Assembly: GCF_039935575.1 (NCBI RefSeq)
Contig: NZ_JBDTKA010000111.1
Location: 903-64,902, forward strand
Origin: Lapillicoccus sp.
Lineage (GTDB): Bacteria > Actinomycetota > Actinomycetes > Actinomycetales > Dermatophilaceae
Reading direction: 5' to 3'
Length of the DNA: 64,000 nt
Each line of letters starts with the position of its first letter. The first letter of the stretch is position 1. Positions 15,565 through 57,754 of this stretch are shown piece after piece. The position numbers were made by a program, and so were the translations under genes. The notes under the pieces are model-generated. The model worked only from the letters and a program-made list of their open reading frames with translations, made no database searches and had not been told where the DNA came from.

Positions 15565-15612
15565 GCACACCCCTGATCGAGAGGTAGGTGAAGCACCGAC
15601 TGGTGCGAGCAC

Positions 15613-16626: not shown

Positions 16627-16645
16627 GCGTGGAGGAGAACACCAG

Positions 16646-17740: not shown

Positions 17741-17756
17741 GAAGAGAGTCAACGCC

Positions 17757-19010: not shown

Positions 19011-19891
19011 TGGCCCGGCTGCTCTTCGTCCACGCACACCCGGACGACGAGACGCTCACCTGCGGCATCACCATGGCGCACCACGTCGCGATTGGTGACG
19101 ACGTGCATACCCTCACCTGCACGCTCGGTGAGGAGGGCGAAGTCGTCCCGCCGGAGCTCGCCCACCTGCAGGGCGCCGAGGGCGACCCGCTCGGGCCGTG
19201 GCGCCGCGAGGAGCTGCGCACAGCGATGGACCGGCTCGGTGTGCAGCACGGGGTGCTCGGCGAGGAGCGGGCCGACGGGGGCGACGGCGGCGGCACCTGG
19301 CGAGACAGTGGGATGGCCGGTATGCCGTCGTGGAACCATCCGCGAGCGTTCGCCCGGGCGGACGTCGAACGGGTCGGGTTCCAGGTGGCGGAGCACCTGC
19401 GCCGGCTTCGGCCCGACGTCGTCGTCACCTATGACGCCACCGGGGGGTACGAGCACCCCGACCACATCCAGACCCACCGGGTGACCATGGCTGCGCTGCG
19501 CCAGCTCGGGCCTGAGGAGCGGCCCGCCTCCACCTTCCACATCCACACCCCGCGGTCCTGGGTCGCCCAGGACCGGGCCTGGCTGCGCGACCACGTGCCC
19601 GAGAACCTGGGCATCGCCGTCCCGGCTGCCGACGACCCGCTGATCGCCTCGACGGTGGACGACGACGTGGTCACGCACGCGGTCGACGACCCGGTGCATG
19701 TTCCCACCCAGATCGCGGCGCTCGACGCCCACCGCACCCAGCTGCGGGTCTGGGACGGCTGGTACTACGCCCTGACCAACGACGTCGCCGCACGGCTCGC
19801 CGGTCGCGAGGCGTTCGTGCGCGTCGACCCTCTCACGGGCGCTCGCGCGCACACCGGCCCCCTGGCCTACGAGCTGATGTCGCGTAGTTAG
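19010..19891 (+). CDS. mshB: PIG-L family deacetylase, MshB-like (mycothiol biosynthesis)
   Basis: TGATG overlap with the upstream stop. LLFVHAHPDDETL, TCTLGEEGEV, WRDSGMAG and GGYEHPDHIQTH motifs. Confidence 0.8.
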   Translation: MARLLFVHAHPDDETLTCGITMAHHVAIGDDVHTLTCTLGEEGEVVPPELAHLQGAEGDPLGPWRREELRTAMDRLGVQHGVLGEERADGGDGGGTWRDSGMAGMPSWNHPRAFARADVERVGFQVAEHLRRLRPDVVVTYDATGGYEHPDHIQTHRVTMAALRQLGPEERPASTFHIHTPRSWVAQDRAWLRDHVPENLGIAVPAADDPLIASTVDDDVVTHAVDDPVHVPTQIAALDAHRTQLRVWDGWYYALTNDVAARLAGREAFVRVDPLTGARAHTGPLAYELMSRS

Positions 19892-19985: not shown

Positions 19986-20510
19986 GTGACCTTCGACGAT
20001 GCGGACTCCTTCGGGTCCCTCGCGCTGCCCACGTCCGACGAGTACCGGCAGGCCATGGGGCGTCTGGTGAGCGGCGTGACCATCGTGACCACCAGAGCGG
20101 GCGGCCTCGACCATGCGATGACCGCCAACGCCGTGACCTCGGTGTCCCTCGAACCCCTGCTGCTGTTGGTCTGCGTCGAGCGCGAGGCCCGCTTCCACGA
20201 CGCGATCATCGAGTCGGGCGTGTGGGCCGTGAACATCCTGCCCGGTTCGGCTCGGCCCGCGGCCGACTGGCTGGCCACCCGAGGCCGACCGCTGCATGGG
20301 CAGCTGGACCGCGTGGCCCATCACGCCGGCCCGCGCACCGGCGTACCCCTTCTCGACGTCGTCCTCTCGACCGTCGAGTGCCGAACCACCGAGCTGATAG
20401 TGGCGGGCGACCATACGATCGTCGTGGGGGAGGTCCTGTCGGTGGACCTCGCCGAGCACCCGGGAGATGCGCTCGTGTACTACCGCGGCAGGTACGACAC
20501 TCTCTCGTGA
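19986..20510 (+). CDS. flavin reductase family protein
   Basis: VTIVTTRAGGLDHAMTANAVTSVSLEPLLLLVCV is typical of the HpaC-like flavin reductase domain. Confidence 0.8.
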   Translation: MTFDDADSFGSLALPTSDEYRQAMGRLVSGVTIVTTRAGGLDHAMTANAVTSVSLEPLLLLVCVEREARFHDAIIESGVWAVNILPGSARPAADWLATRGRPLHGQLDRVAHHAGPRTGVPLLDVVLSTVECRTTELIVAGDHTIVVGEVLSVDLAEHPGDALVYYRGRYDTLS

Positions 20511-21367
20511 ACCGGCTGGGTGTGCAGGTACCCGAGTGTCTGACGCTGCCGGTGCCGTATGACGCGGCCTGGATGCGCTGGTACCTCGAGGCACACGCGG
20601 TGCCAGGCGTCGAACGGTACGACGCGGACGGCTACACCCGCACCGTGCTGCTGACCGGTGGCCCGGCCCTGGTGTCCCTGCGTCTCGGCGATGACGTCGG
20701 GGTGGGGCTGCGGTTGACGCAGCAGACCGACCGCGCCGAGGCGATCGCCACCGTTCGGCGACTGCTCGACCTCGACAGTGACGGCCGGGCCGCAGACCTC
20801 GCCCTCGGTGCCGACCCAGCTCTGGCCGTGACGGTCGCGCAGGCGCCGGGAGTTCGGGTCCCGGGTGTCGTCGACGGGTGGGAGCTGCTGCTGCGCACGA
20901 TGGTGGGCCAGCAGATCTCCCTGGCGGCGGTGCGTACCCACCTCGGCCGGCTGGTGGTTTCGCTCGGACGGGCCGTCGGTGACCCCGCCGAGGGGTGGCG
21001 GCTGATGCCGACCGCGGAGGCGGTGGCCGAGCACGGCGCAGAGGTGCTGACGGGGCCGGGGCGCCGGGTGGCGGCGGTGGTTGGGGCCGCGGCGGCCGTG
21101 GCTGGAGAAGACCTCGTCCTCGAGCCTGACAGCGACCCGGTTGCGTTGCGGCGCAGCCTGATCGCGCTGCCCGGGATCGGACCGTGGACGGCCGACTACG
21201 TCGTCATGCGCCTCTGCCGAGACCCCGACGTCCTACTGTCGAGCGACCTCGTGGCTCGGCAGGGCGCCGCGGTGCTGGGAGTCGATCTGGCGGCGTCCGC
21301 CCGGTGGTCGCCGCACCGGTCGGTGGCGACGATGCACCTGTGGCGGGCGGCGCTCGCAGCCCGCTGA
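20507..21367 (+). CDS. alkA: DNA-3-methyladenine glycosylase II family (AlkA-like, HhH-GPD)
   Basis: GTGA overlap with the upstream stop (in-frame GTG of ORF 19940-21367). LLLRTMVGQQISLAAVRTHLGRLV and LPGIGPWTADYVVMR match the HhH-GPD pattern. Confidence 0.75.
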   Translation: MNRLGVQVPECLTLPVPYDAAWMRWYLEAHAVPGVERYDADGYTRTVLLTGGPALVSLRLGDDVGVGLRLTQQTDRAEAIATVRRLLDLDSDGRAADLALGADPALAVTVAQAPGVRVPGVVDGWELLLRTMVGQQISLAAVRTHLGRLVVSLGRAVGDPAEGWRLMPTAEAVAEHGAEVLTGPGRRVAAVVGAAAAVAGEDLVLEPDSDPVALRRSLIALPGIGPWTADYVVMRLCRDPDVLLSSDLVARQGAAVLGVDLAASARWSPHRSVATMHLWRAALAAR

Positions 21368-21392
21368 ACCGCGGTCGCCTTGTGCACCGCCC

Positions 21393-21518
21393 GGGGTTGC
21401 GTCCGACCAAGTGGTGGCCAGGGCGACCGAAACGTCGGACGCAGCGCGCGCCTTCGGGGTTGCGTCCGACCAAGTGGTGGCCAGGGCGACCGAAACGTCG
21501 GACGCAACGCGCGCCTTC
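21393..21518 (+). repeat. tandem duplication of a 63-bp palindrome-containing element (2 copies, 1 mismatch)
   Basis: Unit is ggggttgcgtccgaccaagtggtggccagggcgaccgaaacgtcggacgca(a/g)cgcgcgccttc. Each unit has 12-nt inverted arms, gttgcgtccgac / gtcggacgcaac (perfect in unit 2, one mismatch in unit 1), around a 26-nt loop. Confidence 0.9.
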
Positions 21519-31391: not shown

Positions 31392-31978
31392 GCGACGGCC
31401 TCGTCGTCGGAGCCGACGGGTTGGCCCGGTGCGCGTGGGCGGGCTCCACGGCGGACTACCTCGTCTACCACGACGAGGAGTGGGGCCTTCCGGTCCATGG
31501 AGAGTCGGCGCTGTTCGAACGGTTCACTCTCGAGGCGTTCCAGTCGGGGCTGTCCTGGCTGACCATCCTGCGCAAGCGGGACGGGTTCCGGGCCGCCTTC
31601 TCGGGCTTCGGTGCGGACGAGGTCGCAGCCTTCGACGACAGTGACCGGGCGCGGCTGATGGCCGACGTCGCCATCGTGCGCAACTCCCGCAAGATCGACG
31701 CTGCGATCGGCAACGCCCGGGTCGTCGTCACCCTGCGCGACTCTGGCGGCCTCGACGCGCTCGTATGGTCGTTTGCTCCTGCGACGCATACCCCTCCGTG
31801 TGTCCTCGGAGACGTCCGGGCCACGAGCCCCGAGTCCGTCGCGCTCGCCGCCCGGCTCAAGCGGGAGGGTCTCGTCTTCGTCGGGCCGACGACCGCGTAT
31901 GCAGCGATGCAGGCCTGCGGGCTGGTCGACGACCATCTCGCAGGATGCCACCGATCCAGCGTCCGGACGCCGGCGTGA
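31388..31978 (+). CDS. tag: DNA-3-methyladenine glycosylase I
   Basis: ATGA overlap with the upstream stop. CAWAGSTADYLVYHDEEWGLPVHGESALFERFTLEAFQSGLSWLTILRKR. Confidence 0.9.
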   Translation: MSDGLVVGADGLARCAWAGSTADYLVYHDEEWGLPVHGESALFERFTLEAFQSGLSWLTILRKRDGFRAAFSGFGADEVAAFDDSDRARLMADVAIVRNSRKIDAAIGNARVVVTLRDSGGLDALVWSFAPATHTPPCVLGDVRATSPESVALAARLKREGLVFVGPTTAYAAMQACGLVDDHLAGCHRSSVRTPA

Positions 31979-33222
31979 CCGAGATCCGGGAAGAGCGCGA
32001 CGTCGAGCCGACCAGCCCCCTCGGCGTCCTGGGGCTCCAGCGCCTCGGAGGGTTCCTGCCCCGCCTGCTGCTGGCCTACGCCGCGTGTCGGGTGGTCAGT
32101 GGGGTGATCCTCGCGATCGTCGCCACCCGGCAGGTTCCGACCGGGTGGACCGGCCCCGTCGTCAGCTACCTGACCTTCACCGCGCAGTGGGACGGGCAGT
32201 GGTACCAACAGATCGCACTCGGCGGCTACCCGCATCGGCTGCCGGTCGACGGCGCCGGTCTGGTGCAGCAGAACGCCTGGGCGTTCTACCCGCTCTTCCC
32301 GCTGCTCAGCAGGGCGCTGATGGACCTCACCGGGCTCGACTTCTACGTCGTCGGTTCGACGGTGTCGCTGGTCGCCGGGTTCGTCGCCGCGGGGGCGATG
32401 GGGCTGCTGCTCCGACCGCGGCTCGGGGACCGCGCCACCCTCGCCGTCGTCGTCCTCTGGGCGAGCATGCCGGCGGCGGTCGTGCTCCAGGTGGGTTACA
32501 CCGAGGCCCTGGCGATGGCCTTGCTGACCCTGTTCCTGCTTGCCCTGAGCAAGCGCAGCTGGTTGACCGCGACCGGGCTGGCGCTCCTGCTCGGGCTCGC
32601 CCGGCCGATCGCCGTTCCCCTGGCCGCGGTCACGCTCGTCGCCATCTGGCAGCGGTGGCACCGGCGTCGCGACGAGCCGATCGAGCGCAGTGAGGCCCTC
32701 AGCGCGCTGGCGGCGCTCGCCGGCTGCGGTGTCTCCGGGATCCTCTGGCCGGCGATCGCGGGGCTGTCCACGGGCCGGGCCGATGCCTACACGGCGACCA
32801 TGTCGACGTGGCGCGGTAGCCGGGAGATCGTCCCGTTCACACCCTGGTTGGACATGTCGCGGTACTACTTCGGTGCCACCTGGGGCCCGGTGTGGCTGGT
32901 CACCCTGTTCGTCCTCATCGCGATGCTCGCCCTCGGTCCGTGGGCGGCTCGGCTCGGCGCCCAGCTGCGCACCTGGTCGCTGGCCTACCCGGCATACCTG
33001 CTCGTCGTGCTCGACCCCTTTACCTCGATCTTCCGTTACCTCATCCCGCTGTTCCCGCTCGGTGCCGTGCTCATCGGCGTGGGCGGACATCCGAGATGGT
33101 CCGGCTGGCAGCAGTGGGCGCGGGTCCGGTTCTGGGTGCTGCTCGGGGCGTTCGTGATCGGGCAGTGGTACTGGGTCGACGTCCTCTGGCGGTTCGTGCC
33201 GCCGAGCGACTACCCGCCTTAA
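31945..33222 (+). CDS. polytopic membrane protein, GT-C-like (putative mannosyl/glycosyltransferase)
   Basis: Many TM helices. QWDGQWYQQIALGGY...NAWAFYPLFPLL resembles PIG-V/DUF2029-type membrane glycosyltransferases. The start is uncertain (ATG 31945 or GTG 31975). Confidence 0.5.
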   Translation: MPPIQRPDAGVTEIREERDVEPTSPLGVLGLQRLGGFLPRLLLAYAACRVVSGVILAIVATRQVPTGWTGPVVSYLTFTAQWDGQWYQQIALGGYPHRLPVDGAGLVQQNAWAFYPLFPLLSRALMDLTGLDFYVVGSTVSLVAGFVAAGAMGLLLRPRLGDRATLAVVVLWASMPAAVVLQVGYTEALAMALLTLFLLALSKRSWLTATGLALLLGLARPIAVPLAAVTLVAIWQRWHRRRDEPIERSEALSALAALAGCGVSGILWPAIAGLSTGRADAYTATMSTWRGSREIVPFTPWLDMSRYYFGATWGPVWLVTLFVLIAMLALGPWAARLGAQLRTWSLAYPAYLLVVLDPFTSIFRYLIPLFPLGAVLIGVGGHPRWSGWQQWARVRFWVLLGAFVIGQWYWVDVLWRFVPPSDYPP

Positions 33223-46160: not shown

Positions 46161-47009
46161 TCACCACCTCGACGTCGCTGCCGCCATCAGGTCCCCGAAG
46201 AGCTCGCCGTCGTCGACGGGATATCCCCGCCGAGTGAACCAGTCGGCCATGTTCTTCGCGTCGCGCTCCAGGAACTCCGGTCCGTGCGGGTTGCCGATGA
46301 TGTCGACGATCTGCGGCCAGTCGATCACCACGAGCCGCTCACCGTCGAGCAGCACGTTGTAGGGCGAGAGGTCCCCGTGCGCCCACCCACGCAACGCGAG
46401 CGTCGTCATGGTCTCGCGCAGCTGCTCGAACAGCTCGGGCAGCAGGTCGGCGGGGGGTCTGGTCTGGACCAGTCGAGGGGCTGCCTCGCCGTCCTGACCG
46501 ATGAGCTCCATCAGCATCTCGGTGTCGCCCAGCTGGACGGGATAGGGCACGGGCAGCCCCATCTCCCAGAGCTTTCCGAGCGCGTCGAACTCGGCCATGG
46601 CCCACTGTCCAGTGATGAGGGCCTTGCCGAACTCGGTGCGACGTCCCATGGCCCGCATCTCGCGACTGCGCCGCACCCGTCGGCCTTCGAGATAGCCGGT
46701 GTCTCGGTGGAACATCCGGTGTTCGGCGCCGCGGAACCGTTTGGCGGCCATCAGGACGTCCTGGCCCGGCTGGTCGGGAACCCAGCGGCGCACGATGTGG
46801 ACCTCCGCCTCCTTGCCGGACTTGAGCACGCCGAGGTCGGCATCGACCGCGCCGAGGGCGGTGACGACCCAGTCGGGTCGAGGTTTCGGGCCGTGCATCG
46901 ACCCGTCCCACGAGGACCACTGGTCTCCTGCGGGCGGTCCGTCGGGCTTGCTGTCAAGCGCGAACGACGCGATGTCCCAGTCGTCGGCGGATGGTGTTGC
47001 AGGTGTCAC
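46161..47009 (-). CDS. RIO1-family atypical serine protein kinase
   Basis: LKSGKEAEVHIV (ATP-binding loop/Lys region), MELIG hinge-like segment, catalytic HGDLSPYNVL and metal-binding VVIDWPQ motifs. Confidence 0.8.
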   Translation of the reverse strand: MTPATPSADDWDIASFALDSKPDGPPAGDQWSSWDGSMHGPKPRPDWVVTALGAVDADLGVLKSGKEAEVHIVRRWVPDQPGQDVLMAAKRFRGAEHRMFHRDTGYLEGRRVRRSREMRAMGRRTEFGKALITGQWAMAEFDALGKLWEMGLPVPYPVQLGDTEMLMELIGQDGEAAPRLVQTRPPADLLPELFEQLRETMTTLALRGWAHGDLSPYNVLLDGERLVVIDWPQIVDIIGNPHGPEFLERDAKNMADWFTRRGYPVDDGELFGDLMAAATSRW

Positions 47010-47276: not shown

Positions 47277-50200
47277 GTGGCGACGACGTCGTTCGCTCGC
47301 GGGCGGTTGCGTGTCACGCACCCGGTGACCTACCGCGCCACGAGCGTGCGCACGCGAAGCCGAGGGATCGACGGGACTACTCCCCAGGACGTCGATACGG
47401 TGGTCGTGAACACGTTGCGGGACAACGGGTTCAACCAGGTGCAGCGGGTCGCCATCACGTCGGGCACTGGTCGTGGTCTCGGTGACCGAGGGCTGCGGGC
47501 TCGTCCGCGCCCGGCCGCCGTCACGATCGCTCTGGACGTGGCCGATGACGAGGATGCCGTGGTCCTGCTCGAGACCGGTGGCTGTTACTCGTGGGTCCTC
47601 CCGACGCACGAACCGCGGCCCCGCAGCCGCGGCACGGACCGGGCGTTGTCCGGCCGGGTGGCGCGGTTCGACATCAGCATCGCACCGACCTCCGGGGCAG
47701 CCGAACGCACGCGAGTCCGTGACCTCGGCTGGCCGACCAGCAGTGCCGGAGCCCGTGCAACCGTGCTGTCGTTCGCGGCCGGCGCCCTCGGCGACGCCGC
47801 GATACGCCTGCTGGAGAGTCGGGTGGAGCCGGGGTTCGTGCACGTGACCTCCGCCGATCCGAGCGGGTGGACGCGCGTCGACGACCTCGCGGCCGTGGGT
47901 CTCGACGCCGCCCGCCCCAACCGCGTTCTGCTCCTGGTCCACGGAACGTTCGACTCGACCCTCGGCGCCTTCTCCGGCCTGGCCGCCACCGCAGAGGGGC
48001 GTGCCTTCCTCGAGGCGGCGGTCGAGGCATACGACGCGGTCGTCGGTTTCGACCACCGCACCCTCAGCGTCGACCCTTTGGCCAATGCCACCGACCTTGG
48101 GCAGCGACTCGTCGCCCTGGTCGCCACGGCGCCGGTGACGCTCGATGTGTTGTGCCACAGCCGCGGTGGGCTCACGGCACGAAGCTTCGCCGAGTCGGTG
48201 CTGCCGGGCCTGGCCTGGCGGGGTCGGGTGGACCGGGCAGTGTTCGTGGCTGCGACGAACGCCGGGACGCACTTCGCCGACGCAGATCGGTGGAAGGACC
48301 TCGCCGACCTCTACACCAACCTCGTCTCGGCGCACGCCCGAGCGCTCGCCGCCGTTCCCGGGGGCGGAGTGCTCGCCGACGCGGCCGTGTCGGCGATCAG
48401 GGGCATCGGCGCTCTCGTCAGCTGGCTCGCGTCCTACGCGACAGCGAGTGGGAGCGTCCCCGGCCTGGCGGCGATGAACCCCGACGGCGCGTTCGTCGAG
48501 ACGATCAACCAGGACCAGCCTGGGCAGCCGCGTCCCGGCACCCCGTGGTTCGTCGTCTCGTCGGACTTCCATGCCACGACCGCCACCAGGCCCGAGGAGA
48601 TCCCCGCCGAGGTTTTCAGCCGCCTCGTCGAGGGGGTCGTCGACAAGGTGTTCGACGGTCCGAACGACCTGGTCGTCGACGATGCGTCGATGAGCGCCAT
48701 CGACCTGCCGCACGGTGGGGGATATGTGCGCGATACCCTCGCATTGGGAACGAATGCTGTTGTCTACCACACCAACTACTTCTCACAACCGGTTGTGGCC
48801 AAGGCCCTCCAGTCCTGGCTCGTCGACCGGCTCGACAGCCTCGACAGCCTCGACAGCCTTGACACAGCCTCGGCTGGGCCGCCTCCGAACCGTGTCGAAC
48901 CACCTCTGGTCCCGCCTGAGCAACCGCACCAACGGGGGCCGGTCGCGGTCGAGGAGCGACTGCCGGACGGCTGGCAGCCCTCGTTCCCCACGAACGCCGA
49001 GCCGCCGGACGAGTCCGCGACGCCGACGGTCCGGGCGCGGCTGCGGGCCGAGATGCCCCTTCATCCGACGGTCGGCCTCAGCGTCTCGGTCCGGGTCCGG
49101 CTGTCACGCGGCCCACTCGACGCCGCCACAGGAACGGCCTCGCGGCAGACGGTGCTGACCATCCGGCCCGAGATCCCGGTGTCGATCCAGCTGGTGCCGT
49201 CGACGAACGCCGTCCTCGAGGACGAGGACCTGCGGCTGGTCCTGCTCCAGCCAGGCATCGCCTCGTCGGACGTCACTTTTGCGGTGCACGCAGTCGCGGT
49301 CGGGCCGGTACGCGTACGCGTTCTCGCCCGACAGGGAGCGGAGCTGCTCGGGACGCTCGAGCTGGCCACCGAGGCGGTCTCTGCTGCGGTCGCCGCGGCC
49401 GCCTCCGACGCACCGGGGGGACGACAAGCGGTGACCCGCGGTCAGGTCGAGATCGCGAGTAGCACCTCGCCAGTGCTGGCCGACACACCGTGGCTCGAGA
49501 TCTCGCAGATCCAACGCGGTGGCCAGACCCACTTCCAGTACGAGCTGCGCATGCCCGGCGCCGACCTCTCTTCCACCGACCATCGGCTCACATACGAGTC
49601 CGCGGACATCGGTGACCCCGAGGCGTTCGTCTCGAACCGGATCAAGGAGGTGATGGCGCTGTGGTTCGACTACTCGACGGCACCGCGGACCTACCTCGCC
49701 AAGCTGCAGGACCTCGGCGCCGCCCTGTTCGAGCAGCTCTTCCCCCAGGAGATGCAGCGGTTCCTCTGGACGAACCGAGGCAGGCTCGAGGGCCTGTTCC
49801 TCCTCACCGACGAGCCGTTCATCCCCTGGGAGCTCGTGCATCTGAAGCCCGCCACCGGCCCACGCCAGAAGGCGCCGAGGTTCCTCGGCCAGCTCGGGCT
49901 TGTCCGGTGGCAGTTCACGCCTTTTCCGGCGACGGCGACCCTGCGGGCCCGGCCCGGGGAGGTCTTCGCAGTCTGTCCGGACTACGCCGACGACCGGAAC
50001 GACCTGGACCAGGCCGGGCTGGAGAGGGCCTTCCTCACCGCCACCCTCGGCGCGACCGAGGTCACGGCGACCGAGGCCAAGGTCCGCGCGCTGCTGCGGC
50101 GCCGGGGGAGCTTCGACCTGTTGCACTTCAGCGGTCACGGCGAGGCCGACGCCACCAACATTGCCGACGCGCGGATTCTGTTGGCCGGACGCCGGGTCGG

Positions 50201-50585
50201 GGACGCCCTGGTGGCCGACTACCTGTCGTCGACGACCGTCGCGGAGAACGCCCGCTTGTCCAGACGCGACGGTCCTGGACCGCTGGTCGTCCTCAACGCC
50301 TGTCAGGTGGGCCGTTCGGGGGAGGAGCTGACCTCCCTCGGCGGGTTCGCACGTGCCTTCCTGGAGGCGGGGGCCTCCGCGTTCGTCTCCTGCCTGTGGT
50401 CGGTCAACCAGGTGCCGGCACAGGCCTTCGCCGAGACCTTCTACCGTCAGCTCCTCGACGGACGGACGGTCGCCGAGGCGGCCCTCGCCGCACGCAGCGC
50501 TGCCCGGAACGGCGACCGCGGCGACGCGACCTGGCTGGCCTACGTCGTCTACGCGCGCCCCGACGCTGTTCTCGTCCGGGACTGA
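47277..50585 (+). CDS. 1102-aa multidomain protein: unassigned N-terminus, alpha/beta-hydrolase (lipase/PGAP1-like), Pro-rich linker, beta-rich middle region, C-terminal CHAT (caspase-fold) protease
   Basis: In-frame GTG 47277 of ORF 46128-50585, with aggagg ending 6 nt upstream; the upstream part of the ORF is antisense to the RIO kinase. LLLVHGTFDS and LCHSRGG (Ser295). CHAT dyad LLHFSGHGEAD (His954) and VVLNACQVG (Cys1009). Confidence 0.8.
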   Translation: MATTSFARGRLRVTHPVTYRATSVRTRSRGIDGTTPQDVDTVVVNTLRDNGFNQVQRVAITSGTGRGLGDRGLRARPRPAAVTIALDVADDEDAVVLLETGGCYSWVLPTHEPRPRSRGTDRALSGRVARFDISIAPTSGAAERTRVRDLGWPTSSAGARATVLSFAAGALGDAAIRLLESRVEPGFVHVTSADPSGWTRVDDLAAVGLDAARPNRVLLLVHGTFDSTLGAFSGLAATAEGRAFLEAAVEAYDAVVGFDHRTLSVDPLANATDLGQRLVALVATAPVTLDVLCHSRGGLTARSFAESVLPGLAWRGRVDRAVFVAATNAGTHFADADRWKDLADLYTNLVSAHARALAAVPGGGVLADAAVSAIRGIGALVSWLASYATASGSVPGLAAMNPDGAFVETINQDQPGQPRPGTPWFVVSSDFHATTATRPEEIPAEVFSRLVEGVVDKVFDGPNDLVVDDASMSAIDLPHGGGYVRDTLALGTNAVVYHTNYFSQPVVAKALQSWLVDRLDSLDSLDSLDTASAGPPPNRVEPPLVPPEQPHQRGPVAVEERLPDGWQPSFPTNAEPPDESATPTVRARLRAEMPLHPTVGLSVSVRVRLSRGPLDAATGTASRQTVLTIRPEIPVSIQLVPSTNAVLEDEDLRLVLLQPGIASSDVTFAVHAVAVGPVRVRVLARQGAELLGTLELATEAVSAAVAAAASDAPGGRQAVTRGQVEIASSTSPVLADTPWLEISQIQRGGQTHFQYELRMPGADLSSTDHRLTYESADIGDPEAFVSNRIKEVMALWFDYSTAPRTYLAKLQDLGAALFEQLFPQEMQRFLWTNRGRLEGLFLLTDEPFIPWELVHLKPATGPRQKAPRFLGQLGLVRWQFTPFPATATLRARPGEVFAVCPDYADDRNDLDQAGLERAFLTATLGATEVTATEAKVRALLRRRGSFDLLHFSGHGEADATNIADARILLAGRRVGDALVADYLSSTTVAENARLSRRDGPGPLVVLNACQVGRSGEELTSLGGFARAFLEAGASAFVSCLWSVNQVPAQAFAETFYRQLLDGRTVAEAALAARSAARNGDRGDATWLAYVVYARPDAVLVRD
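48831..48863 (+). repeat. in-frame 9-bp tandem repeat (ctcgacagc x3 plus partial) encoding LDSLDSLDSLD
   Basis: Direct reading of 48831-48863, inside the linker after the hydrolase domain. Confidence 0.85.
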
Positions 50586-50672: not shown

Positions 50673-51524
50673 ATGACTGCTCGCGCCCTCTGTGTCGGGA
50701 TCAACGAGTTCGCCCACCTGCCCACCTCGAGCTGGCTGAACGGGTGCGTCAACGACGCGAACGACATGTCCGCGCTGCTGCTCACCCAGCCGGGCTTCAC
50801 CCGCCGCAACGTCACCGTGCTGGCGGATGCCGCGGCCACCAAGGCCAACGTCATGACGGCGCTGACCGACATGGTCGGCAAGGCCAAGGCCGGCGCCCTG
50901 GACCACGTCGTCTTCTCCTTCTCCAGCCACGGAACGCAGGTGCCCGACACCAACGGCGACGAGAAGGTCGACCACGTCGACGAGGCGTTCGCCTGCCACG
51001 ACATCGCCCAGAAGGGTGACGACTGGGACCGCGACACCGTGATCGTCGACGACGAGCTGAACGTCCTCCTCCAGGACATTCCCAAAGGCGTGCTCGTCGA
51101 GGTGGTCCTCGACACCTGCCACAGCGGGACGGGCCTGCGCGACATCGACCTGCTGTCGGGGCGGCGCCCTCGGTTCCTTCCTCCGCCCACCCGCAAAGGC
51201 ATCCTGCGTCTGGCCCCGAAGTCGGACCCCAAGGGCCTGCAGGAGCTGGTCAGGTCGACGCCCGCGGCCACGAGGGCGGTCCTGTATGCCGCCTGTCGCG
51301 CGGACCAGACCTCGGCCGACGCCTACTTCGACGGACGTTACAACGGCGCGTTCACGTACTACTTTCTCGAGGCGGTCAAGGGCGGCGGCTATCCGTCCCG
51401 GTCTGCTCTGATGACCGCCGTCAGCCAGGCGCTGCGCACCGGTGACTTCGAACAGCGCGCCCAGCTCGAGGCGTCTCAGAGGGCCAAGCGGTCCGCTTTC
51501 GGTGCACTGCCGGACGGGTCGTGA
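50673..51524 (+). CDS. caspase-like cysteine peptidase (Peptidase C14 / metacaspase-like), stand-alone
   Basis: ALCVGINEF...GCVNDANDM, FSFSSHGTQ (His86) and VVLDTCHSGTG (Cys149). ggaagga lies before the ATG. Confidence 0.85.
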   Translation: MTARALCVGINEFAHLPTSSWLNGCVNDANDMSALLLTQPGFTRRNVTVLADAAATKANVMTALTDMVGKAKAGALDHVVFSFSSHGTQVPDTNGDEKVDHVDEAFACHDIAQKGDDWDRDTVIVDDELNVLLQDIPKGVLVEVVLDTCHSGTGLRDIDLLSGRRPRFLPPPTRKGILRLAPKSDPKGLQELVRSTPAATRAVLYAACRADQTSADAYFDGRYNGAFTYYFLEAVKGGGYPSRSALMTAVSQALRTGDFEQRAQLEASQRAKRSAFGALPDGS

Positions 51525-51528
51525 CCCG

Positions 51529-52380
51529 ATGCCGCTCCTGAAGCACGCGTTCTGCCCGGGGTACCCGCCACCGTTCGACTCCCTCGTTGCGGACTACCCG
51601 GGTGAAGACGTATACCCGCAGAAGGACTTCCGCACCGAGTGGGGCCCGATCTTCCACCGGGGCCGTCTCGACGGCTCCGCCGTGGTGCTGGTCCTCGGGC
51701 AGGACCCCGCGACGCACGAGAGCGTCAGTCGCCGCATCCTCGTGGGTGAGGCGGGACAACGCGTGCAGGGGCTGCTCGCGAAGCTGGGGGTCGCCCACTC
51801 CTACACGATGGTGAATACGTTCCTCTACAGCGTCTACGGTCAGGGTGGCGGCAGCCGGCACGAGCACGACGAGCACATCGCGGACTACCGGAACCGTTGG
51901 CTCGACGCGCTTCTGGACGGCACCCGCGTGACGACCGTGATCACCCTGGGCATGCTCGCGGCGTCGGCTTACCAGTCCTGGCTGGGCTCCCGCCCGCAGC
52001 TGGCTGCGGGACTACAGCACACCGCCCTGCGACACCCCACCTATCCCGAGAGCGCTTCGGCCAGTGGCCAGAAGACGCTCGCCGCGGCCACCGAGATCCT
52101 GCTCTCCGACTGGAACGCCCACCTGCCCGAGCTGAGGTCACACGTCCAGCCAGACTTCCCTCCAACTGCGACGGTCTATGGAAACAGCTGGCAGGAGGGC
52201 GATCTCGCCCGGATCCCCCAGGCAGACCTGCCGCCCGGTTCGCCGGACTGGTGGTTCGAGCTGGCGGCGTGGGCCTCACGGACGGGCAAGGACACCCAGC
52301 TGAAACGCGCGACCATCCAGGTGGTCGTCCCCACCCGGGCGCGCACCTGGCCCGTCCTCACCCCGACCGGCGGGAGCTGA
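51529..52380 (+). CDS. uracil-DNA-glycosylase-superfamily (UDG-fold) protein of unclear family
   Basis: Internal ATG of ORF 51442-52380, 4 nt after the caspase stop. VLVLGQDPATHES (motif A position; Asp59) and ALRHPTYP (motif B position; His169). No Fe-S cysteine cluster. Confidence 0.6.
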   Translation: MPLLKHAFCPGYPPPFDSLVADYPGEDVYPQKDFRTEWGPIFHRGRLDGSAVVLVLGQDPATHESVSRRILVGEAGQRVQGLLAKLGVAHSYTMVNTFLYSVYGQGGGSRHEHDEHIADYRNRWLDALLDGTRVTTVITLGMLAASAYQSWLGSRPQLAAGLQHTALRHPTYPESASASGQKTLAAATEILLSDWNAHLPELRSHVQPDFPPTATVYGNSWQEGDLARIPQADLPPGSPDWWFELAAWASRTGKDTQLKRATIQVVVPTRARTWPVLTPTGGS

Positions 52381-52384
52381 CGCG

Positions 52385-53755
52385 ATGGCTTCCACCGGAA
52401 CGTTCGAACGCGCATACAAGCGCGGCGTGACGCGGCGGCAGGAACCTGCGCCGCGCCGCCCCCGGGCCTTGCCCCCTGCTCCGTTCTGCCTGCACGGCGC
52501 GGTGATCACGCCCGATGAGGCGTGGCCGAGCGGTTACGTCACCGTCGAGAACGGGGTCATTGCGACCGTCGGGAAACGCAAGCCGACCGGTGTCACGGTC
52601 ACCGAGACCGACGGCGTGATCCTGCCCGGGCTGCTCGACCTGCACGGACACCCGGAGTTCAACGTCTTCGCGGCCTGGGAGCCACCGAGGCTTTATGCCA
52701 ACCGGTACCGCTGGCGCGCAAGCACCCCGTATCGCGTCCTGGTCCGGGACCCGCAGAACACCATTCTCAGTACCCTGCCCCCGCAGACCCAGAGCCGGTA
52801 TGCCGAGATCCGCGCCTTGACCGCCGGCGTGACGGCGATCCAAGGGGCCTCAGGAGCCAGCACCGCTACGGCAGAACCGTTGGTACGCAACGTGGATCTC
52901 TTCGTGTTCGGTGACCACCGTGCCCGGGCCATGATCGACCTGCCCACGGGTTCGAGCCGCGACATGCCTCGGCTCAAGAAGATCGTGGCCGACATCGGCA
53001 CCGGTGATGTCGACGCCTTCTACCTGCACCTGTGCGAAGGCGTCCCGGGCGACGAACGCAGCGCCACGGAGTTCGCGAGCTTCCTGCACGCGGGCGCAGC
53101 CACCCCAGCGACCAACGTCATCCACGGTTCGGCGTTGTCCGAGACCGACCTGCACACGCTCGCCGACGCGGGGTGCCGGCTGGTCTGGTCGCCGCAGTCC
53201 AACCTGCGGCTCTACGGCGCGACGACATCCGCGGGCGTTGCGCGGCAGGCCGGTATGCAGGTGGCGCTCGGAGCCGACTGGTTGCCGTCGGGGTCGACCA
53301 GCCTGCTCGCCGAGATGAAGGTGGCGCGACGCCAGCTCGCCCTCCAGGGCCACCCGGTCACCGCGGCCGAGCTCGTAGCGATGGTCACCTCGGTGGCGGC
53401 GTCGGTCGCGGGCCTGTCAGCACATCTGGGAGCGGTTGCAGTGGGCCGGCCGGCGGACTTGTTGGTGCTCGAGCGCCATCACGCCGACCCCTACGAGAAC
53501 GTCTGCCTGGCGGACCCGTCGTGGGTGGAGCTCGTCTGCATCGGCGGCGACATCACCTACGCGCGGCAGGACTGGTTCGAGCGGCTGTCCGGCAACGCGC
53601 AGAGCGACACGATCGAGTCGCTGCTCGCATGGGGAAAGCCGATGCGGCTCGACAACGGCTATGGGTCGGGCCACCAGTCGCCGACCCCGTCGCTGTCGCA
53701 GATCCGGACCTTGCTCACGACCACCTACCCGCAGGTAGGTCCGATCTACGCCTGA
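52385..53755 (+). CDS. amidohydrolase-superfamily enzyme with deaminase-type motif set
   Basis: 4 nt after the upstream stop. LDLHGHPE (His87/His89), YLHLCEG (His215/Glu218), VIHGS (His247) and LGADW (Asp298). Confidence 0.8.
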   Translation: MASTGTFERAYKRGVTRRQEPAPRRPRALPPAPFCLHGAVITPDEAWPSGYVTVENGVIATVGKRKPTGVTVTETDGVILPGLLDLHGHPEFNVFAAWEPPRLYANRYRWRASTPYRVLVRDPQNTILSTLPPQTQSRYAEIRALTAGVTAIQGASGASTATAEPLVRNVDLFVFGDHRARAMIDLPTGSSRDMPRLKKIVADIGTGDVDAFYLHLCEGVPGDERSATEFASFLHAGAATPATNVIHGSALSETDLHTLADAGCRLVWSPQSNLRLYGATTSAGVARQAGMQVALGADWLPSGSTSLLAEMKVARRQLALQGHPVTAAELVAMVTSVAASVAGLSAHLGAVAVGRPADLLVLERHHADPYENVCLADPSWVELVCIGGDITYARQDWFERLSGNAQSDTIESLLAWGKPMRLDNGYGSGHQSPTPSLSQIRTLLTTTYPQVGPIYA

Positions 53756-54437: not shown

Positions 54438-55973
54438 TCAGCGGCCCCAGATCCGGGCGATCCAGGCCTCGACGTCGTCAGCCGTGCGAGGCATACCGGC
54501 TGAGAGGTTCTCGAACCCGTCGGCGGTGATGAGGACGTCGTCCTCGATCCGCACGCCCGTCCCGCGGAACGCCTCGGGGACCAGCTGGTCGTCGGCCTTG
54601 AAGTAGAGACCGGGCTCGACGGTCAGGATCATCCCCGCCTCGAGCACGCCGTCCTTGTACTCCTCACGCGTCGCCTGGGCGCAGTCGTGCACGTCCAGGC
54701 CCAGGTGATGGCTTGTGCCGTGCACCATCCAACGGCGGAACTGCTGGCCGTGCTCGGTGTCGAGGGCTGCCTCGACGTCGACGCCTTCGGGGAGAAACCC
54801 CCACTCGTGCAGGTGCTCGGCGATCACCCGGATCGCGGTGTCGTGGATCTCGCTGTACTTCACGCCCGGCCGCATCACCTGCATCGCCGCCTGCTGGGCC
54901 GCGTAGACGGCGTCGTAGATGGTGCGCTGCGTCTCGGTGAAGGTCCCGTCGATCGGAAGCGTGCGGGTGATGTCGGCGGTGAAGAGGGAGTCCACCTCCA
55001 CGCCGGCGTCGAGCAGCAGCAGGTCACCCTCCAGCACGTCACCGGTGTTCTTGACCCAGTGCAGCGTGGTCGCGTGGTCACCGCTGGCGCAGATGGATTC
55101 GTATCCGATGCCGTTGCCACTGTGCCGGGCGTGCAGGCCGAAGACACCTTCGACCCAGCGCTCACCACGACCGCGGGCCAGGGCCTCGCGCAGCTCGGCG
55201 ATGACCGCCTCGAAGCCTTCCTGGGTAGCGGCCACGGCCTGACGCATCTGCTCGATCTCGTACTCGTCCTTGACGAGCCGCAGGCTGGACAGGGCCGAGG
55301 CGAGCGCATCGTCCGCCTCGACGCGGGTCTGCTCTGCCGCCTCGACGGACTCCTCCGACTCCTCCGTCGCGGTGCTGCGGACCTCGTCGAGGGTCGCGGT
55401 GAGGTCCCGGTCGGCGTCCCGGACGACGCGAACAACGAGGTGTCCGGCGTCCTTGGCGACCGCGTCGGAGAAGTCGTCGATGTGGCGTGCGGTGATGCCG
55501 AACTCGGCCTCGATGTCCTCGAGCGTCGGCCTCGGACCGACCCAGAACTCCCCGTAACGCGAGTCGCTGAAGAACTCGTCCGTGTCGCGACCGCCCCAGG
55601 GCCGGAAGTAGAGGACGGCGTCGTGACCGCCCTCCTCGCGGGGTTCGAGGACGAGGACGGCGTCGGGTTCCTGGTCACCGCCGAACCCGGTCAGGTGAGC
55701 GAACGCGCTGTGCGGTCGGAACACGTAGTCGCAGTCGTTGCTGCGCACCTTCAGGCCCCCGGCGGGGATGACGAGGCGGTCACCGGGGAACCTGGCGCTG
55801 ATCGCCTCCCGACGGGTGGCCGCATACGAGGCGACCTCGGCCCGCTCCGGAAGCGTGGTCGAGCGCGGCGACCAGCCTGACGAGACGAAGGACCGCAGCT
55901 CGTCGGTGGTCGGACGGGCTCCGTTGAGGCTCTTCTTCTGTTCTTCGCTCACGGTCTCCATGGTGCCACTCAA
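54438..55973 (-). CDS. pepP: Xaa-Pro aminopeptidase (M24B, aminopeptidase P family)
   Basis: LLLDAGVEVDSLFTADITRT, HGTSHHLGLDVHD and GMILTVEPGLY...GVRIEDD metal-ligand blocks. Confidence 0.9.
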   Translation of the reverse strand: MSGTMETVSEEQKKSLNGARPTTDELRSFVSSGWSPRSTTLPERAEVASYAATRREAISARFPGDRLVIPAGGLKVRSNDCDYVFRPHSAFAHLTGFGGDQEPDAVLVLEPREEGGHDAVLYFRPWGGRDTDEFFSDSRYGEFWVGPRPTLEDIEAEFGITARHIDDFSDAVAKDAGHLVVRVVRDADRDLTATLDEVRSTATEESEESVEAAEQTRVEADDALASALSSLRLVKDEYEIEQMRQAVAATQEGFEAVIAELREALARGRGERWVEGVFGLHARHSGNGIGYESICASGDHATTLHWVKNTGDVLEGDLLLLDAGVEVDSLFTADITRTLPIDGTFTETQRTIYDAVYAAQQAAMQVMRPGVKYSEIHDTAIRVIAEHLHEWGFLPEGVDVEAALDTEHGQQFRRWMVHGTSHHLGLDVHDCAQATREEYKDGVLEAGMILTVEPGLYFKADDQLVPEAFRGTGVRIEDDVLITADGFENLSAGMPRTADDVEAWIARIWGR

Positions 55974-57754
55974 CCACCGCCGGCGGTGATGACGACGGCT
56001 TGGCGCACGGTCCGACCGCCCGCCTCAGGGCCGGCCAGCACCGTCGTCCGACCGGAGCCGAGGTCCTCGGTCACCAGCCGGTCGCCGTCATCGGCGCAGC
56101 GCGTCCCGCCGTAGGAGGCGACCCCGTCGACGACGGTGTTGAGCACGAGGCCTGCGGCAACCGGTGGCAGCGTAGCCGAGCGAACCGTCCCGTCCGGGCC
56201 GATGTCCGTCAGGCTCGTCGAGCACGCGTCGCCACCGCGCAGGACCGTGGTACCGATCGGTGAGGGCCACGCGTCGGAGAAACCGGCGCCGCCCACGGGT
56301 CGGGCGGCGGACCCGTCCAGGGGGCTGACGAACAGACGCCCGCCCGCCGACCTGCAGGCCAGCAGGACCTCGCCCCGGGACCACGAGGAGCGCGGCGTGC
56401 ACCCTGATGCGCCGGCGGGCGGAGGCAGGGTGGCCACCGCGTCGGTATGCAGGTCGACGAGCTTGATCTGGTCGTCGATCGTGGACACGACGGCCGTGTC
56501 CGTGGCGCGGTCGACGGCCAGTCCGGGCGTGCCGGGGCTGCCGGCCACGGGAGGCAAGGTGAACGGGTAGGTGGCCAGGAGCCGGCCATCCCTGCTCCGG
56601 TGGTCCAGCTGGACCGCCGCGTTCGAGTCCGTCCAGAGCATGAGGTAGCCGCTGTCCGGTGTGCCCGCATACCTCATCGTCTTCCAGCCGTAGGAGACGC
56701 CCAGAGGTCGCGAGGTGCCGGCGACCAGGTCCCACTCCTGCGGTTGGGCGCCCACCGAGAGCAGGACCCGGTGCCCGTCGCGGCTGACGTCCTGGATCAC
56801 GATCCCGTCGGCGGCGGTGCTGATCGGGTACCGGGTCCCGTTCGGGGCGGCGAGCAGCACCGTGGTCGTGATCCCGATGGCCGTGGCGGCGGTGGTCAGG
56901 ACGGTCCACCCCGGACCGACCTGGTCCCAGGGGATCGCCGAGCGCGGCTTCTCGTCCCGGGCCAGCGCCGGCGAGGACAACGGTTCAATGGGGGCCGTCG
57001 TCTCGATCGGGGGAGGTGGCGTGGCCGCAGGGGTACGCCGGCCGATGGCCGTAGTCACGGCTGCGACCAGGGCCACGACGACCAGTGTCGCGACCAGGGT
57101 GAGCCCCCGGCGTCGATGGGTCACCGTGATCCTGGCGTCCTCGGCCAGCACGTCGGCGAACGTGCTCCGCAGGTCGGTCGCGGCGACGGACTCGGCCCAG
57201 CGGTGGAGCGCCTCGTCGACTCGTTCGAGGGTCCGATCAAGGGTGGGGTCGTGTGCAGCGCTGTCGGGTGCAGACGGCCCGGTGGTGTGGAGGGTCGCCA
57301 GGGCGCGGTGAGTCGCCGCGGTGACCGCGGACTCGCGAACCCCGAGGATGACCGCCGCCTGACGGTCGTTCCGGGCCGCCCACAGCGTCAGGACCAGGGC
57401 CTCCCGCTGCGCCCGCGGCAGGGCGATGACCCGGTCCATCGTCGTCGGTGCGGCAGTCGGTGACGGCTCGGGTCGGGATCGCCTGTCGAGGCTGTGGGAT
57501 CGAGCGAGTCGACGTGACCCCGCGACGACGACGGCCTGGAGGGAGGCCAGCGCCGCACCAGGGTCGTCTCGGCCACCACCGCGCTGCAGCTGCAGGAAGG
57601 CGTCCTGGACGACCTGTTCGGCGCCGGCCCGGCTCTGGTCGGGAGGCAGGAGAAGCACCGCCAGGCGGACGAGCGAAAGTCGGTGGGCGCCATAGAGAGA
57701 CGCGACGTCGGTGCCGGCGATAGAGCGGGCTCGCATCACATGACCTCCCGCCAC
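55970..57754 (-). CDS. ECF sigma-factor domain fused in one ORF to a TM helix and a beta-propeller-like extracytoplasmic domain
   Basis: The N-terminal ~175 aa are paralogous to the sigma at 59424-60017 (LYGAHRLSLVRLAVLLL..VVQDAFLQL; region 4 LPRAQREALVLTLW...). TM helix GLTLVATLVVVALVAAVTTAIG. The C-terminus is paralogous to 58045-59427. Alternative start ATG 57736. Confidence 0.7.
   Translation of the reverse strand: MAGGHVMRARSIAGTDVASLYGAHRLSLVRLAVLLLPPDQSRAGAEQVVQDAFLQLQRGGGRDDPGAALASLQAVVVAGSRRLARSHSLDRRSRPEPSPTAAPTTMDRVIALPRAQREALVLTLWAARNDRQAAVILGVRESAVTAATHRALATLHTTGPSAPDSAAHDPTLDRTLERVDEALHRWAESVAATDLRSTFADVLAEDARITVTHRRRGLTLVATLVVVALVAAVTTAIGRRTPAATPPPPIETTAPIEPLSSPALARDEKPRSAIPWDQVGPGWTVLTTAATAIGITTTVLLAAPNGTRYPISTAADGIVIQDVSRDGHRVLLSVGAQPQEWDLVAGTSRPLGVSYGWKTMRYAGTPDSGYLMLWTDSNAAVQLDHRSRDGRLLATYPFTLPPVAGSPGTPGLAVDRATDTAVVSTIDDQIKLVDLHTDAVATLPPPAGASGCTPRSSWSRGEVLLACRSAGGRLFVSPLDGSAARPVGGAGFSDAWPSPIGTTVLRGGDACSTSLTDIGPDGTVRSATLPPVAAGLVLNTVVDGVASYGGTRCADDGDRLVTEDLGSGRTTVLAGPEAGGRTVRQAVVITAGGG

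Follow-up and report, generated by a model that had tools for sequence, protein, structure and literature searches.

The stretch of DNA analysed here (the window) comprises 64,000 nucleotides (nt) of a Lapillicoccus sp. genome (Actinomycetota, Dermatophilaceae; RefSeq assembly GCF_039935575.1, contig NZ_JBDTKA010000111.1, positions 903 to 64,902), with the G+C content of about 70% that is typical of actinobacteria. A gene on its forward strand, at 47277-50585, starts with GTG and encodes a protein of 1102 amino acids (aa) in which a lipase-like α/β-hydrolase and a CHAT protease are joined on a single chain. The functional unit is a two-gene module made up of this 1102-aa protein and a metacaspase-like Peptidase_C14 (C14) caspase. 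We favour the reading that the module is cytoplasmic and that its lipase-like hydrolase is an effector gated by proteolysis. The chances of this reading seem to us about even; it is drawn partly by analogy with a hydrolase zymogen of Lysobacter and with a cascade in which a SAVED-CHAT protease acts on a caspase (PCaspase).

The 1102-aa protein and its caspase partner

The neighbours of the gene in the window were searched by tblastn against 77 related genomic loci, and in 72 of these a Peptidase_C14 gene lies directly downstream of the gene for the 1102-aa protein. Three of the other five loci are cut by contig ends and only L025 and L029 truly lack the caspase, which leaves a linkage of 72 in 74 informative loci. 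The pair recurs in three unrelated genomic contexts: RIO1/MgtE ... YflT, as in the window; purK-purE ... MFS/MerR; and 2-oxoacid dehydrogenase/enoyl-CoA hydratase ... PHP. In two different metagenome-assembled genomes both genes are fused as one open reading frame (ORF), of 1525 aa in P0053 and 1463 aa in P0058. His86 (in SSHGTQVP) and Cys149 (in LDTCHSG) of the caspase are conserved in 73 sequences. It is because of this linkage, the three contexts, the two fusions and the conserved caspase residues that the pair is taken as the functional unit. A previous annotation of the window, made from its letters and ORFs (the sequence-only reading), had overlooked the caspase. None of the other neighbours is universal: the RIO1-like kinase gene was found in 51 of the 77 loci, YflT in 43, MgtE in 34 and the UDG-like and amidohydrolase genes in 19. 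The kinase was considered as a component of the system and ruled out as synteny, because it is found in only those 51 loci and neither of the two other contexts of the pair has it.

In the window the caspase gene follows 87 nt downstream of the 1102-aa gene, with a Shine-Dalgarno sequence of its own and no predicted terminator between the two. Among solved structures, those nearest to its product in sequence are the metacaspases AtMC4, AtMC9 and Yca1, together with Geobacter GSU0716. Metacaspases cut after Arg or Lys. Against the NCBIfam model NF047832 (EACC1-associated caspase), which has a cut-off of 140 bits, the caspase reached 35.1 bits and the CHAT region 12.1.

The frame of the 1102-aa gene is open from 46128, which would give a reading of 1485 aa. 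We rejected this longer version: its first 383 codons run antisense to a RIO1-like kinase gene (46161-47009, minus strand), and the extension is Arg/Pro/Gly-rich nonsense with the wrong GC at its codon positions. The shorter reading, 47277-50585, is right because three signals agree on it. The third-position GC (GC3) climbs to 0.8-0.9 (0.81-0.92) only from about 47300 on, an AGGAGG Shine-Dalgarno sequence stands 6-7 nt ahead of the GTG, and the match to the Pfam model DUF7362 begins 9 aa past it. The ORF that the sequence-only reading had picked out is thus real, and every motif that it named lies at the residue that it gave, namely NRVLLLVHGTFDS at residue 215, LCHSRGG at 292, LDSLDSLDSLD at 519, VSVRVRLSRG at 603, VSIQLVPS at 635, VTFAVHAVAVGPVRVRVLA at 666, HFSGHG at 950 and NACQ at 1007. 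A motif scan also agreed that the protein contains no GxxxxGK[ST] P-loop, and a P-loop or NTPase sensor within it was therefore ruled out. A Kyte-Doolittle scan found no transmembrane segment or signal peptide in the protein, the top 19-residue window (1.59) being in the lid of the lipase; since no segment is more hydrophobic than this lid, a secreted or transmembrane protein was likewise ruled out.

All four matching Pfam models score above their gathering cut-offs, in the order DUF7362-DUF7379-DUF7363-CHAT: DUF7362 at aa 9-149 (E 2e-15, 57.7 bits, cut-off 27.6), DUF7379 at aa 218-411 (E 2e-62, 211.2 bits, cut-off 33), DUF7363 at aa 591-696 (E 1.5e-17, 64.6 bits, cut-off 28.3) and CHAT at aa 908-1086 (E 2.6e-24, 86.6 bits, cut-off 24). 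The N-terminus, listed as unassigned in the sequence-only reading, is therefore DUF7362. An AlphaFold2 (AF2) model of the protein, built from a 40-sequence alignment, has a mean predicted local distance difference test score (pLDDT) of 80.8, with disordered segments at residues 66-73, 115-123, 147-154, 527-581 (the Pro-rich linker), 712-725 and 1011-1018. A fold search had been proposed for the two regions then without assignment. The β-rich one turned out to be DUF7363, an eight-stranded β-sandwich, and DUF7362, modelled alone (pLDDT 80), gave nothing better than E 0.29 in a fold search of the PDB, so that a fold assignment for it was dropped.

Residues 213-516 show in the AF2 model the strand and helix order of an α/β-hydrolase, and Foldseek matched them to family I.5 lipases (1ku0, 2w22, 2z5g) and others with E values of 5e-6 to 1e-4 and a probability of 1.00. 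Ser295, Asp464 and His498, which form a putative triad in canonical order, are invariant in 118 of 118 full-length homologs, as is the H222-G223 pair. The "small" position of the elbow ahead of Ser295 is held by Cys or Thr, not by Gly. The spacing of Asp464 and His498 presumably recalls the Asp-x-I/V-V ... His arrangement of LipA-type lipases of Bacillus. A hydrophobic helical lid is predicted at about aa 336-410. In this large lid, the putative triad and the HG motif the domain resembles the thermoalkalophilic family I.5 lipases (Geobacillus L1/T1; 1ku0 and 2w22), at E ~5e-6, a target-normalised TM-score of ~0.47 and ~15% identity. It differs from them, being cytoplasmic in our proposal and preceded by DUF7362, whereas these lipases are secreted and have no such prodomain. 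The claim of a lipase-like core is thus borne out. The more specific assignment to a PGAP1/DUF676 type is not: searched alone against Pfam at E values up to 10, the domain matched DUF7379 only and no PGAP1, DUF676 or Lipase model, and weak PGAP1, LCAT and Palm_thioest matches are confined to distant relatives.

The linker that follows is hypervariable among homologs in both length and sequence. Its LDSLDSLDSLD run is encoded by a 9-nt tandem repeat (TCGACAGCC x 4.7) at 48823-48864, which is lineage-specific and absent from homologs. The linker and its repeat were ruled out as a release site, because none of its residues is conserved and the repeat has arisen by local tandem expansion of a 9-nt unit.

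A CHAT domain with an intact dyad had also been claimed, and the Pfam match, the conservation of His954 and Cys1009 in 117 of 117 sequences and the fold matches all agree with it. Foldseek placed the C-terminal part of the protein near Csx29 (Craspase), separase, SAVED-CHAT 8tl0 and DdvA 8rot, with E values from 3e-9 to 1e-6, and a PDB profile search returned 8rot at E 1e-8. In PDB sequence searches, the single protein matched nothing and the profile matched only CHAT proteins and, without significance, the "putative lipase" 7v3k (E 0.4). R1013 is conserved in the disordered loop (low pLDDT at 1011-1018) after Cys1009. Csx29 (the TPR-CHAT protein that acts with gRAMP/Cas7-11 in Craspase) and separase are the best structural matches of the region from about 585 or 735 to 1102, and share the His/Cys dyad with it. 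Both are clan CD proteases that are inactive until licensed. The 1102-aa protein is set apart from them by identities of 10-18%, by having neither TPR/ARM repeats nor an RNA-guided or securin-type regulator, and by unrelated substrates.

Both the hydrolase and the CHAT domain look catalytically active, because the triad, the HG motif and the dyad are invariant in homologs. The catalytic parts are also the most similar among homologs, with a mean pairwise identity of 0.611 for the hydrolase and 0.602 for the CHAT core, compared with 0.445 for DUF7362 (the fastest-diverging folded domain), 0.451 for DUF7363 and 0.49 for the N-part of the CHAT region. The faster divergence of the non-catalytic domains would fit regulatory or sensing roles.

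Table 1. Coordinates of the two-gene module, its domains and candidate functional sites in the window
Feature	Position	Strand	Evidence
Complete gene, DUF7362-DUF7379(α/β-hydrolase)-linker-DUF7363-CHAT	47277..50585	+	ORF, Shine-Dalgarno, GC3 switch, Pfam, 334+ colinear homologs
N-terminal β-rich DUF7362 domain (proposed prodomain/regulatory)	47277..47897 (aa 1-207)	+	Pfam DUF7362
Loop 0 (aa 63-69), P-R-R-T-R66-D-L-D, candidate	47463..47483	+	R/K at 66 in 104/118
Loop 1 (aa 114-119), R-T-R116-S-L-D, candidate	47616..47633	+	R/K at 116 in 115/118
Loop 2 (aa 146-151), T-R148-G-L-L-G, candidate R↓G	47712..47729	+	R/K at 148 in 114/118
α/β-hydrolase domain	47913..48824 (aa 213-516)	+	DUF7379, Foldseek, strand/helix order
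H222-G223, putative oxyanion-hole HG motif after first core strand	47940..47945	+	118/118
Ser295 nucleophile (putative), H-S-R-G-G elbow	48159..48161	+	118/118; strand 287-294 / helix 297-311
Asp464, putative triad acid, in N-D-L-V-V	48666..48668	+	118/118
His498, putative triad base, ahead of last helix	48768..48770	+	118/118
Pro/Glu/Asp-rich disordered linker including LDSLDSLDSLD	48825..49028 (aa 517-584)	+	pLDDT ~30
DUF7363 β-sandwich	49029..49379 (aa 585-701)	+	Pfam; eight β-strands, pLDDT ~90
CHAT/separase-like protease region, helical/β N-part then catalytic core	49479..50582 (aa 735-1102)	+	Pfam CHAT, Foldseek
CHAT catalytic His954, H-F-S-G-H-G	50136..50138	+	117/117
CHAT catalytic Cys1009, N-A-C-Q	50301..50303	+	117/117
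Partner gene, 283-aa metacaspase-like Peptidase_C14 (His86, Cys149)	50673..51524	+	Pfam E 2.7e-26
Caspase residues 156-159, [KR]-D-[LI]-D	51138..51149	+	Basic at 156 in 73/73
Possible accessory genes, UDG-superfamily (weakly UdgX-like) and amidohydrolase	51442..53755	+	Pfam, NCBIfam

Candidate cleavage loops, precedents and proposed mechanism

Three loops of DUF7362 carry the candidate sites for proteolysis (Table 1). Their common motif, [RK]-x-R-[DSG]-L, is set in variable sequence, and the basic residue is kept at the three loops in 88-97% of 118 homologs. Loop 0 adjoins the low-pLDDT segment 66-73, and loops 1 and 2 overlap the low-pLDDT segments 115-123 and 147-154, respectively. At loop 2, G149 is present in 96 and L150 in 103 of the 118 homologs. 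The candidate sites in the window protein itself read GTGR↓GLG, RPR↓SRG (with another R↓G two residues on) and RVR↓DLG. Strand 127-135, with the invariant F131, lies between loops 1 and 2, and cuts at both loops would take this one strand out of DUF7362. Among 146 representatives of the wider family, 60% have [RK]-G in loop 1 and 71% have it in loop 2, with about 25% expected by chance for a loop of this size; the motif of loop 2 is kept in a clade with a TCAD7 domain, in stand-alone forms and in a Ruegeria relative (all described below).

The same motif appears in the caspase as G-L-[KR]156-D-[LI]-D, seven residues past Cys149, and position 167, ahead of F-L-P-P-P-T, is R or K in 73 of 73 sequences. 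The post-Cys (L2-loop-equivalent) region is where caspases and metacaspases are matured. From these patterns of conservation we infer that the Arg loops of DUF7362 would be cleavage sites.

A precedent is known from Lysobacter capsici, where LcCaspase makes a toxic product out of its partner, the α/β-hydrolase zymogen LcHydrolase, by cutting it after R73 and after R117, both of them R↓G sites (Evans et al. 2025 preprint, PMC12642450); what LcHydrolase acts on is still unknown. As in this pair, the gene of a caspase-fold protease adjoins that of a lipase-like α/β-hydrolase in the window, and at least two conserved Arg-(Gly) motifs, separated by about 30-45 residues, precede the catalytic core. 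Both modules are common in Actinobacteria, and both would follow the logic of a latent effector. Unlike LcHydrolase, the 1102-aa protein is fused to a CHAT domain of its own and to a β-sandwich, and is accompanied by a free C14 caspase as well. The P1' residue, strictly G in LcHydrolase, is D, S or G in the window clade (S/D in loop 1, G in loop 2). In VMAP ternary systems an α/β-hydrolase gene "always" neighbours the caspase (Kaur et al. 2020, PMC7159879), and such hydrolases are regarded as membrane-lipid effectors (Kaur et al. 2021, PMC8195603). Unlike the Lysobacter and VMAP modules, the 1102-aa gene is not linked to a STAND, WD40 or VMAP/MoxR/vWA sensor; no MoxR AAA+, vWA or VMAP/iSTAND genes were found within about ±8 kb of it, nor any TCAD domain in the protein.

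In the cascade demonstrated by Steens et al. (10.1101/2023.06.23.546230), SAVED-CHAT switches on a C14 PCaspase by cutting it, and numerous proteins are then degraded by the PCaspase. In the window, too, a CHAT protein is encoded together with a Peptidase_C14 enzyme and its CHAT fold match is significant, which suggests an initiator/executioner pairing. However, there is no SAVED domain in the 1102-aa protein, the PADLOC match to SAVED_CHAT covers the CHAT part only, and scans of the window revealed no cyclic-oligoadenylate source or CRISPR-Cas locus. The input region would instead be formed by DUF7362, the hydrolase and DUF7363, with an additional hydrolase activity apparently built in. The hydrolase-CHAT fusion, DUF7362 and DUF7363 are absent from the descriptions by Evans, Steens and Kaur. 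In its proposed mode of action the 1102-aa family comes closest to protease-activated α/β-hydrolase modules and CHAT→caspase cascades. It lacks the sensor or context features that define either.

In the mechanism that we favour, DUF7362 would keep the hydrolase latent. Arg/Lys-specific clan-CD proteolysis at the loops around R66, R116 and R148 would excise one or more β-strands of this prodomain and so free the hydrolase, a lipase-like effector that would act on an ester or lipid substrate, plausibly a membrane lipid. The protease could be the C14 metacaspase-like enzyme, the fused CHAT domain or both as a short cascade, with one maturing the other; the motif common to the maturation loop of the caspase and the loops of DUF7362 suggests one specificity for both steps. 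In the window clade the C14 enzyme may serve as an amplifier or second executioner. DUF7363 and the N-part of the CHAT region would be the likeliest to sense a trigger, and activation would end in growth arrest or death of the cell, be it in phage defence, under stress or in development. In this scheme all cleavage events are inferred, as are the trigger, the substrate, the toxicity and which of the proteases acts first. The sequence-only reading had already suggested a zymogen from which proteolysis releases an effector. This idea stands as the best-supported hypothesis, in view of the caspase linkage, the Arg loops and the precedents, but the linker offers no conserved site for the release and the candidate sites are found in DUF7362.

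A more elaborate version of the proposal, which we rate as unlikely, sees the module as a self-contained death or stress circuit without a known sensor. CHAT and the metacaspase would form a minimal initiator-executioner pair with a shared [KR]-[DSG]-[LI]-[DG] motif, found both in the maturation loop of the caspase and at three excision sites in DUF7362, and DUF7362, as a prodomain fold not recognised before, would cage the lipase; in contrast to mobile defence islands, the locus would be a vertically inherited, domesticated core locus of Intrasporangiaceae/Dermatophilaceae, to which the UDG-like and amidohydrolase genes are optional additions.

Distribution of the family and competing explanations

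A search of a collection of 5.8 billion proteins with the 1102-aa protein gave 334 matches. Of the 120 listed, almost all share the four-domain architecture and a few lack DUF7362 or CHAT. About half of these 120 align at 99-100% query coverage and the rest at 29-49% (best local alignment), with identities of 41-99%; the named hosts among the matches listed are Intrasporangium, Terrabacter, Humibacillus, Lapillicoccus, Marmoricola and Dermatophilaceae. A scan of one genome per species confirmed 256 loci, and a HMMER search with aa 1-520 yielded 1,947 clusters (50% identity) at E ≤ 1e-3, or 455 at E ≤ 1e-30. To call the architecture unusual, as had been done at first, was thus an overstatement, since its parts are Pfam DUFs, the protein occurs in at least 256 species genomes, its N-terminal half matches about 1,950 clusters (50% identity) and DUF7379-CHAT fusions are known from Proteobacteria as well. 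It had also been asked whether the architecture was already functionally characterised. A literature search on DUF7362, DUF7379 and DUF7363 found no paper, and a further search brought up nothing nearer than the caspase/hydrolase and CHAT/caspase precedents.

The family has several variants. Relatives of 1200-1485 aa carry a TCAD7 domain, which was defined from "ternary" conflict systems, in place of the Pro-rich linker. Examples are P0130, P0147 and P0237 (loci L081 and L082; 1217-1485 aa), with TCAD7 at the linker position; the two that come with genomic context have no downstream C14 caspase. The gene of one TCAD7 relative adjoins those of a phage-type integrase and of an AAA_16 ATPase; upstream of another, at a distance of about 3-4 kb, lie genes for a patatin and a LysM/VanY peptidase. 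DUF7362 and DUF7379 also occur as stand-alone proteins of about 515-540 aa. One of these (541 aa, at 503-2128 of L080) is closed by a stop codon within the contig and has no CHAT or caspase gene downstream, so that the DUF7362-DUF7379 half can exist as an independent unit.

Proteobacteria carry plasmid-borne DUF7379-CHAT fusions. On the megaplasmid of Ruegeria pomeroyi DSS-3 (L084, 7389-14193), the gene for the DUF7379-CHAT protein SPO_RS20450 precedes those for a 986-aa SIR2_2-AAA_21/AAA_15 ATPase and a 297-aa orphan; this locus adjoins an IS5 transposase and looks like a defence operon. A plasmid of Paracoccus yeei (L083, 7491-12860) encodes PYTT13_RS21850, which has 1789 aa and a second, LCAT/PGAP1-like hydrolase domain. 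The Ruegeria and Paracoccus proteins share homology with the 1102-aa protein in the hydrolase, in CHAT and in the C-terminal half of DUF7362 (29% identity and E 3e-26 for the former, 25% and E 5e-14 for the latter), and SPO_RS20450 keeps the Arg loop, in the form R-R-G-I-V-G-D. The 1102-aa gene differs from both, which are plasmid-borne, have no DUF7363 match and lack an adjacent C14 caspase. A phage or plasmid origin of the gene was considered and dropped, there being no phage matches and, on plasmids, matches to distant proteobacterial homologs only.

Several observations weigh against the gated-effector reading. The pair sits in housekeeping synteny that is conserved across genera (RIO1-like kinase, MgtE, YflT), a setting atypical of a phage-defence island. 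No mobile-element or defence genes were found near it among the scanned window genes, PADLOC returned only weak CHAT and caspase matches, and domain searches recognised no known sensor domain in the 1102-aa protein. The predicted template modelling score (pTM) of the AF2 model is 0.51, so that the packing of domain against domain, on which autoinhibition by DUF7362 would depend, is uncertain. The R-G-L-L-G-D sequence is conserved past P1 and could be structural. DUF7362 plus hydrolase (~515 aa, ~56 kDa) is larger than the stand-alone LcHydrolase (~33 kDa), to which it is likened by description, not by sequence. Finally, the Arg motifs are also conserved in the TCAD7 clade and the stand-alone forms, which have no adjacent C14 gene. 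Since the motifs persist there, the C14 enzyme is not the universal processing protease, and in the clades without it CHAT or a protease encoded elsewhere must suffice.

An alternative that seems to us improbable turns the order of events around. The hydrolase and DUF7362 would bind, and perhaps turn over, a lipid or small-molecule signal. The binding would activate CHAT, which would cut and so switch on the C14 caspase, and the caspase would then degrade proteins broadly. A CHAT protein beside a C14 caspase is indeed the pairing of the demonstrated CHAT→PCaspase cascade, SAVED-CHAT 8tl0 is among the top Foldseek matches and PADLOC gave a weak SAVED_CHAT match, but most of the wider family, as exemplified by the TCAD7 clade, lacks an adjacent C14 caspase. 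The fully conserved K/R156 and R167 of the caspase could be CHAT sites, yet the conserved Arg loops of DUF7362 would be left unexplained. Ligand-hydrolysing sensors are known, as in the ring-nuclease SAVED/CARF domains; unlike typical sensors, however, the hydrolase is one of the least diverged parts of the chain (0.611), and the caspase-linked α/β-hydrolases in the literature are effectors. Stand-alone DUF7362-DUF7379 proteins without CHAT or caspase nearby suggest an enzyme unit rather than a mere input.

Distinctly improbable in our view is a domesticated or housekeeping pair that acts on a normal substrate, e.g. in the turnover of envelope or storage lipids, and is regulated by limited proteolysis in stress or development. 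Such a role would suit the same chromosomal position (RIO1-like kinase/MgtE to YflT) in 51 of 77 loci, which span Intrasporangium, Terrabacter, Humibacillus, Lapillicoccus and Phosphoribacter, and the ordinary chromosomal surroundings. It would also suit the searches that found no copies on phages or actinobacterial plasmids and no adjacent defence genes. However, the 1102-aa protein is only 42-60% identical across loci, compared with 70-90% for RIO1, MgtE and the amidohydrolase, and the module has been relocated at least twice, given its three or more genomic contexts. Relatives, some of them with TCAD7, occur in island-like contexts (integrase and AAA_16; IS5 and SIR2-ATPase; near patatin), and two caspase-fold proteases combined with a latent lipase are a hallmark of regulated-death modules. 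A secreted or contact-dependent polymorphic toxin, with CHAT autoprocessing that frees a lipase toxin against competitors, is hardly credible: polymorphic toxin systems commonly have lipase and phospholipase effectors combined with processing peptidase domains (PMC3482391), and the 1102-aa protein is long and multidomain with a flexible linker, but it has no signal peptide or transmembrane segment, no adjacent secretion-system, immunity-like or cassette genes, a hydrolase that is N-terminal/internal and not at the variable C-terminal tip, and a linker without a conserved processing site.

Genomic neighbourhood and significance

The window as a whole is an ordinary piece of chromosome. Its genes include those for BipA, Opp-type ABC transporters, a PIG-L deacetylase, HtrA and Mrp/ParA, and further ones for an MFS sugar transporter, MgtE, an Xaa-Pro aminopeptidase and a glycerol kinase. 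No repeat arrays were found in it, and phage records gave no match. The synteny across genera suggests long vertical inheritance. The RIO1-like kinase gene, which belongs to the PA4780 family, is divergent from the 1102-aa gene, and its product reaches 26 bits against TCAD9, where the cut-off is 40. An associated kinase, PCk, is also present at the CHAT/PCaspase locus of Haliangium; this analogy and the TCAD9 match were the grounds on which the RIO1-like kinase had been considered as a component.

Downstream of the caspase lie the UDG gene (51442-52380, plus strand; true start probably near 51550) and the amidohydrolase gene (52385-53755, plus strand). Both accompany the pair in 19 of the 77 loci and were also noted in L018, L038 and L075, at ~13.9-16.2 kb; they stay with the pair in the third context as well. 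L049 and L053 have the UDG gene in inverted orientation. The two may be accessory components or mere co-travellers.

Some further features of the window were recorded. An oligopeptide-type ABC cluster (SBP_bac_5, permease and two ATPases) at 13360-19010 has the lowest G+C of the window, 0.63-0.65 compared with about 0.70 elsewhere, and a second SBP_bac_5 gene lies at 10381-12393. ARAGORN reported a 97-nt tRNA-Arg(tcg) at 19374-19470 (plus strand), inside a high-GC3 ORF for a PIG-L/GlcNAc-PI de-N-acetylase (18992-19891); Rfam reported none, and the hit is probably a false positive. At 21392-21518, just beyond a minus-strand ORF (20480-21232), a 63-nt unit occurs twice with 98% identity. A 525-aa ORF at 31645-33222 (plus strand) has coding-like GC3 and no Pfam match, and a 594-aa protein encoded at 55970-57754 (minus strand) matches SigE-family sigma factors at aa 15-157 only, with a long C-terminal part that has no match.

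Death effectors that are licensed by proteases, among them gasdermins, Pepco, EACC1, MBL nucleases and α/β-hydrolases, are an emerging logic common to bacterial and eukaryotic immunity. If the gated-effector reading is true, the family would add to it an effector that shares one chain with a protease and has a second caspase as a near-invariable partner. It would also bring in DUF7362 as a prodomain of a new kind, three loops of which are candidates for cleavage. About 2,000 sequence clusters known only by Pfam DUFs make up this uncharacterised family, and as a larger, lid-bearing relative the 1102-aa protein may be a better handle on the substrate of caspase-associated α/β-hydrolases. Since the pair holds the same position in several genera, among them the phosphate accumulators Phosphoribacter/Tetrasphaera of wastewater, one may ask whether such modules can be domesticated for stress-induced or developmental cell death.

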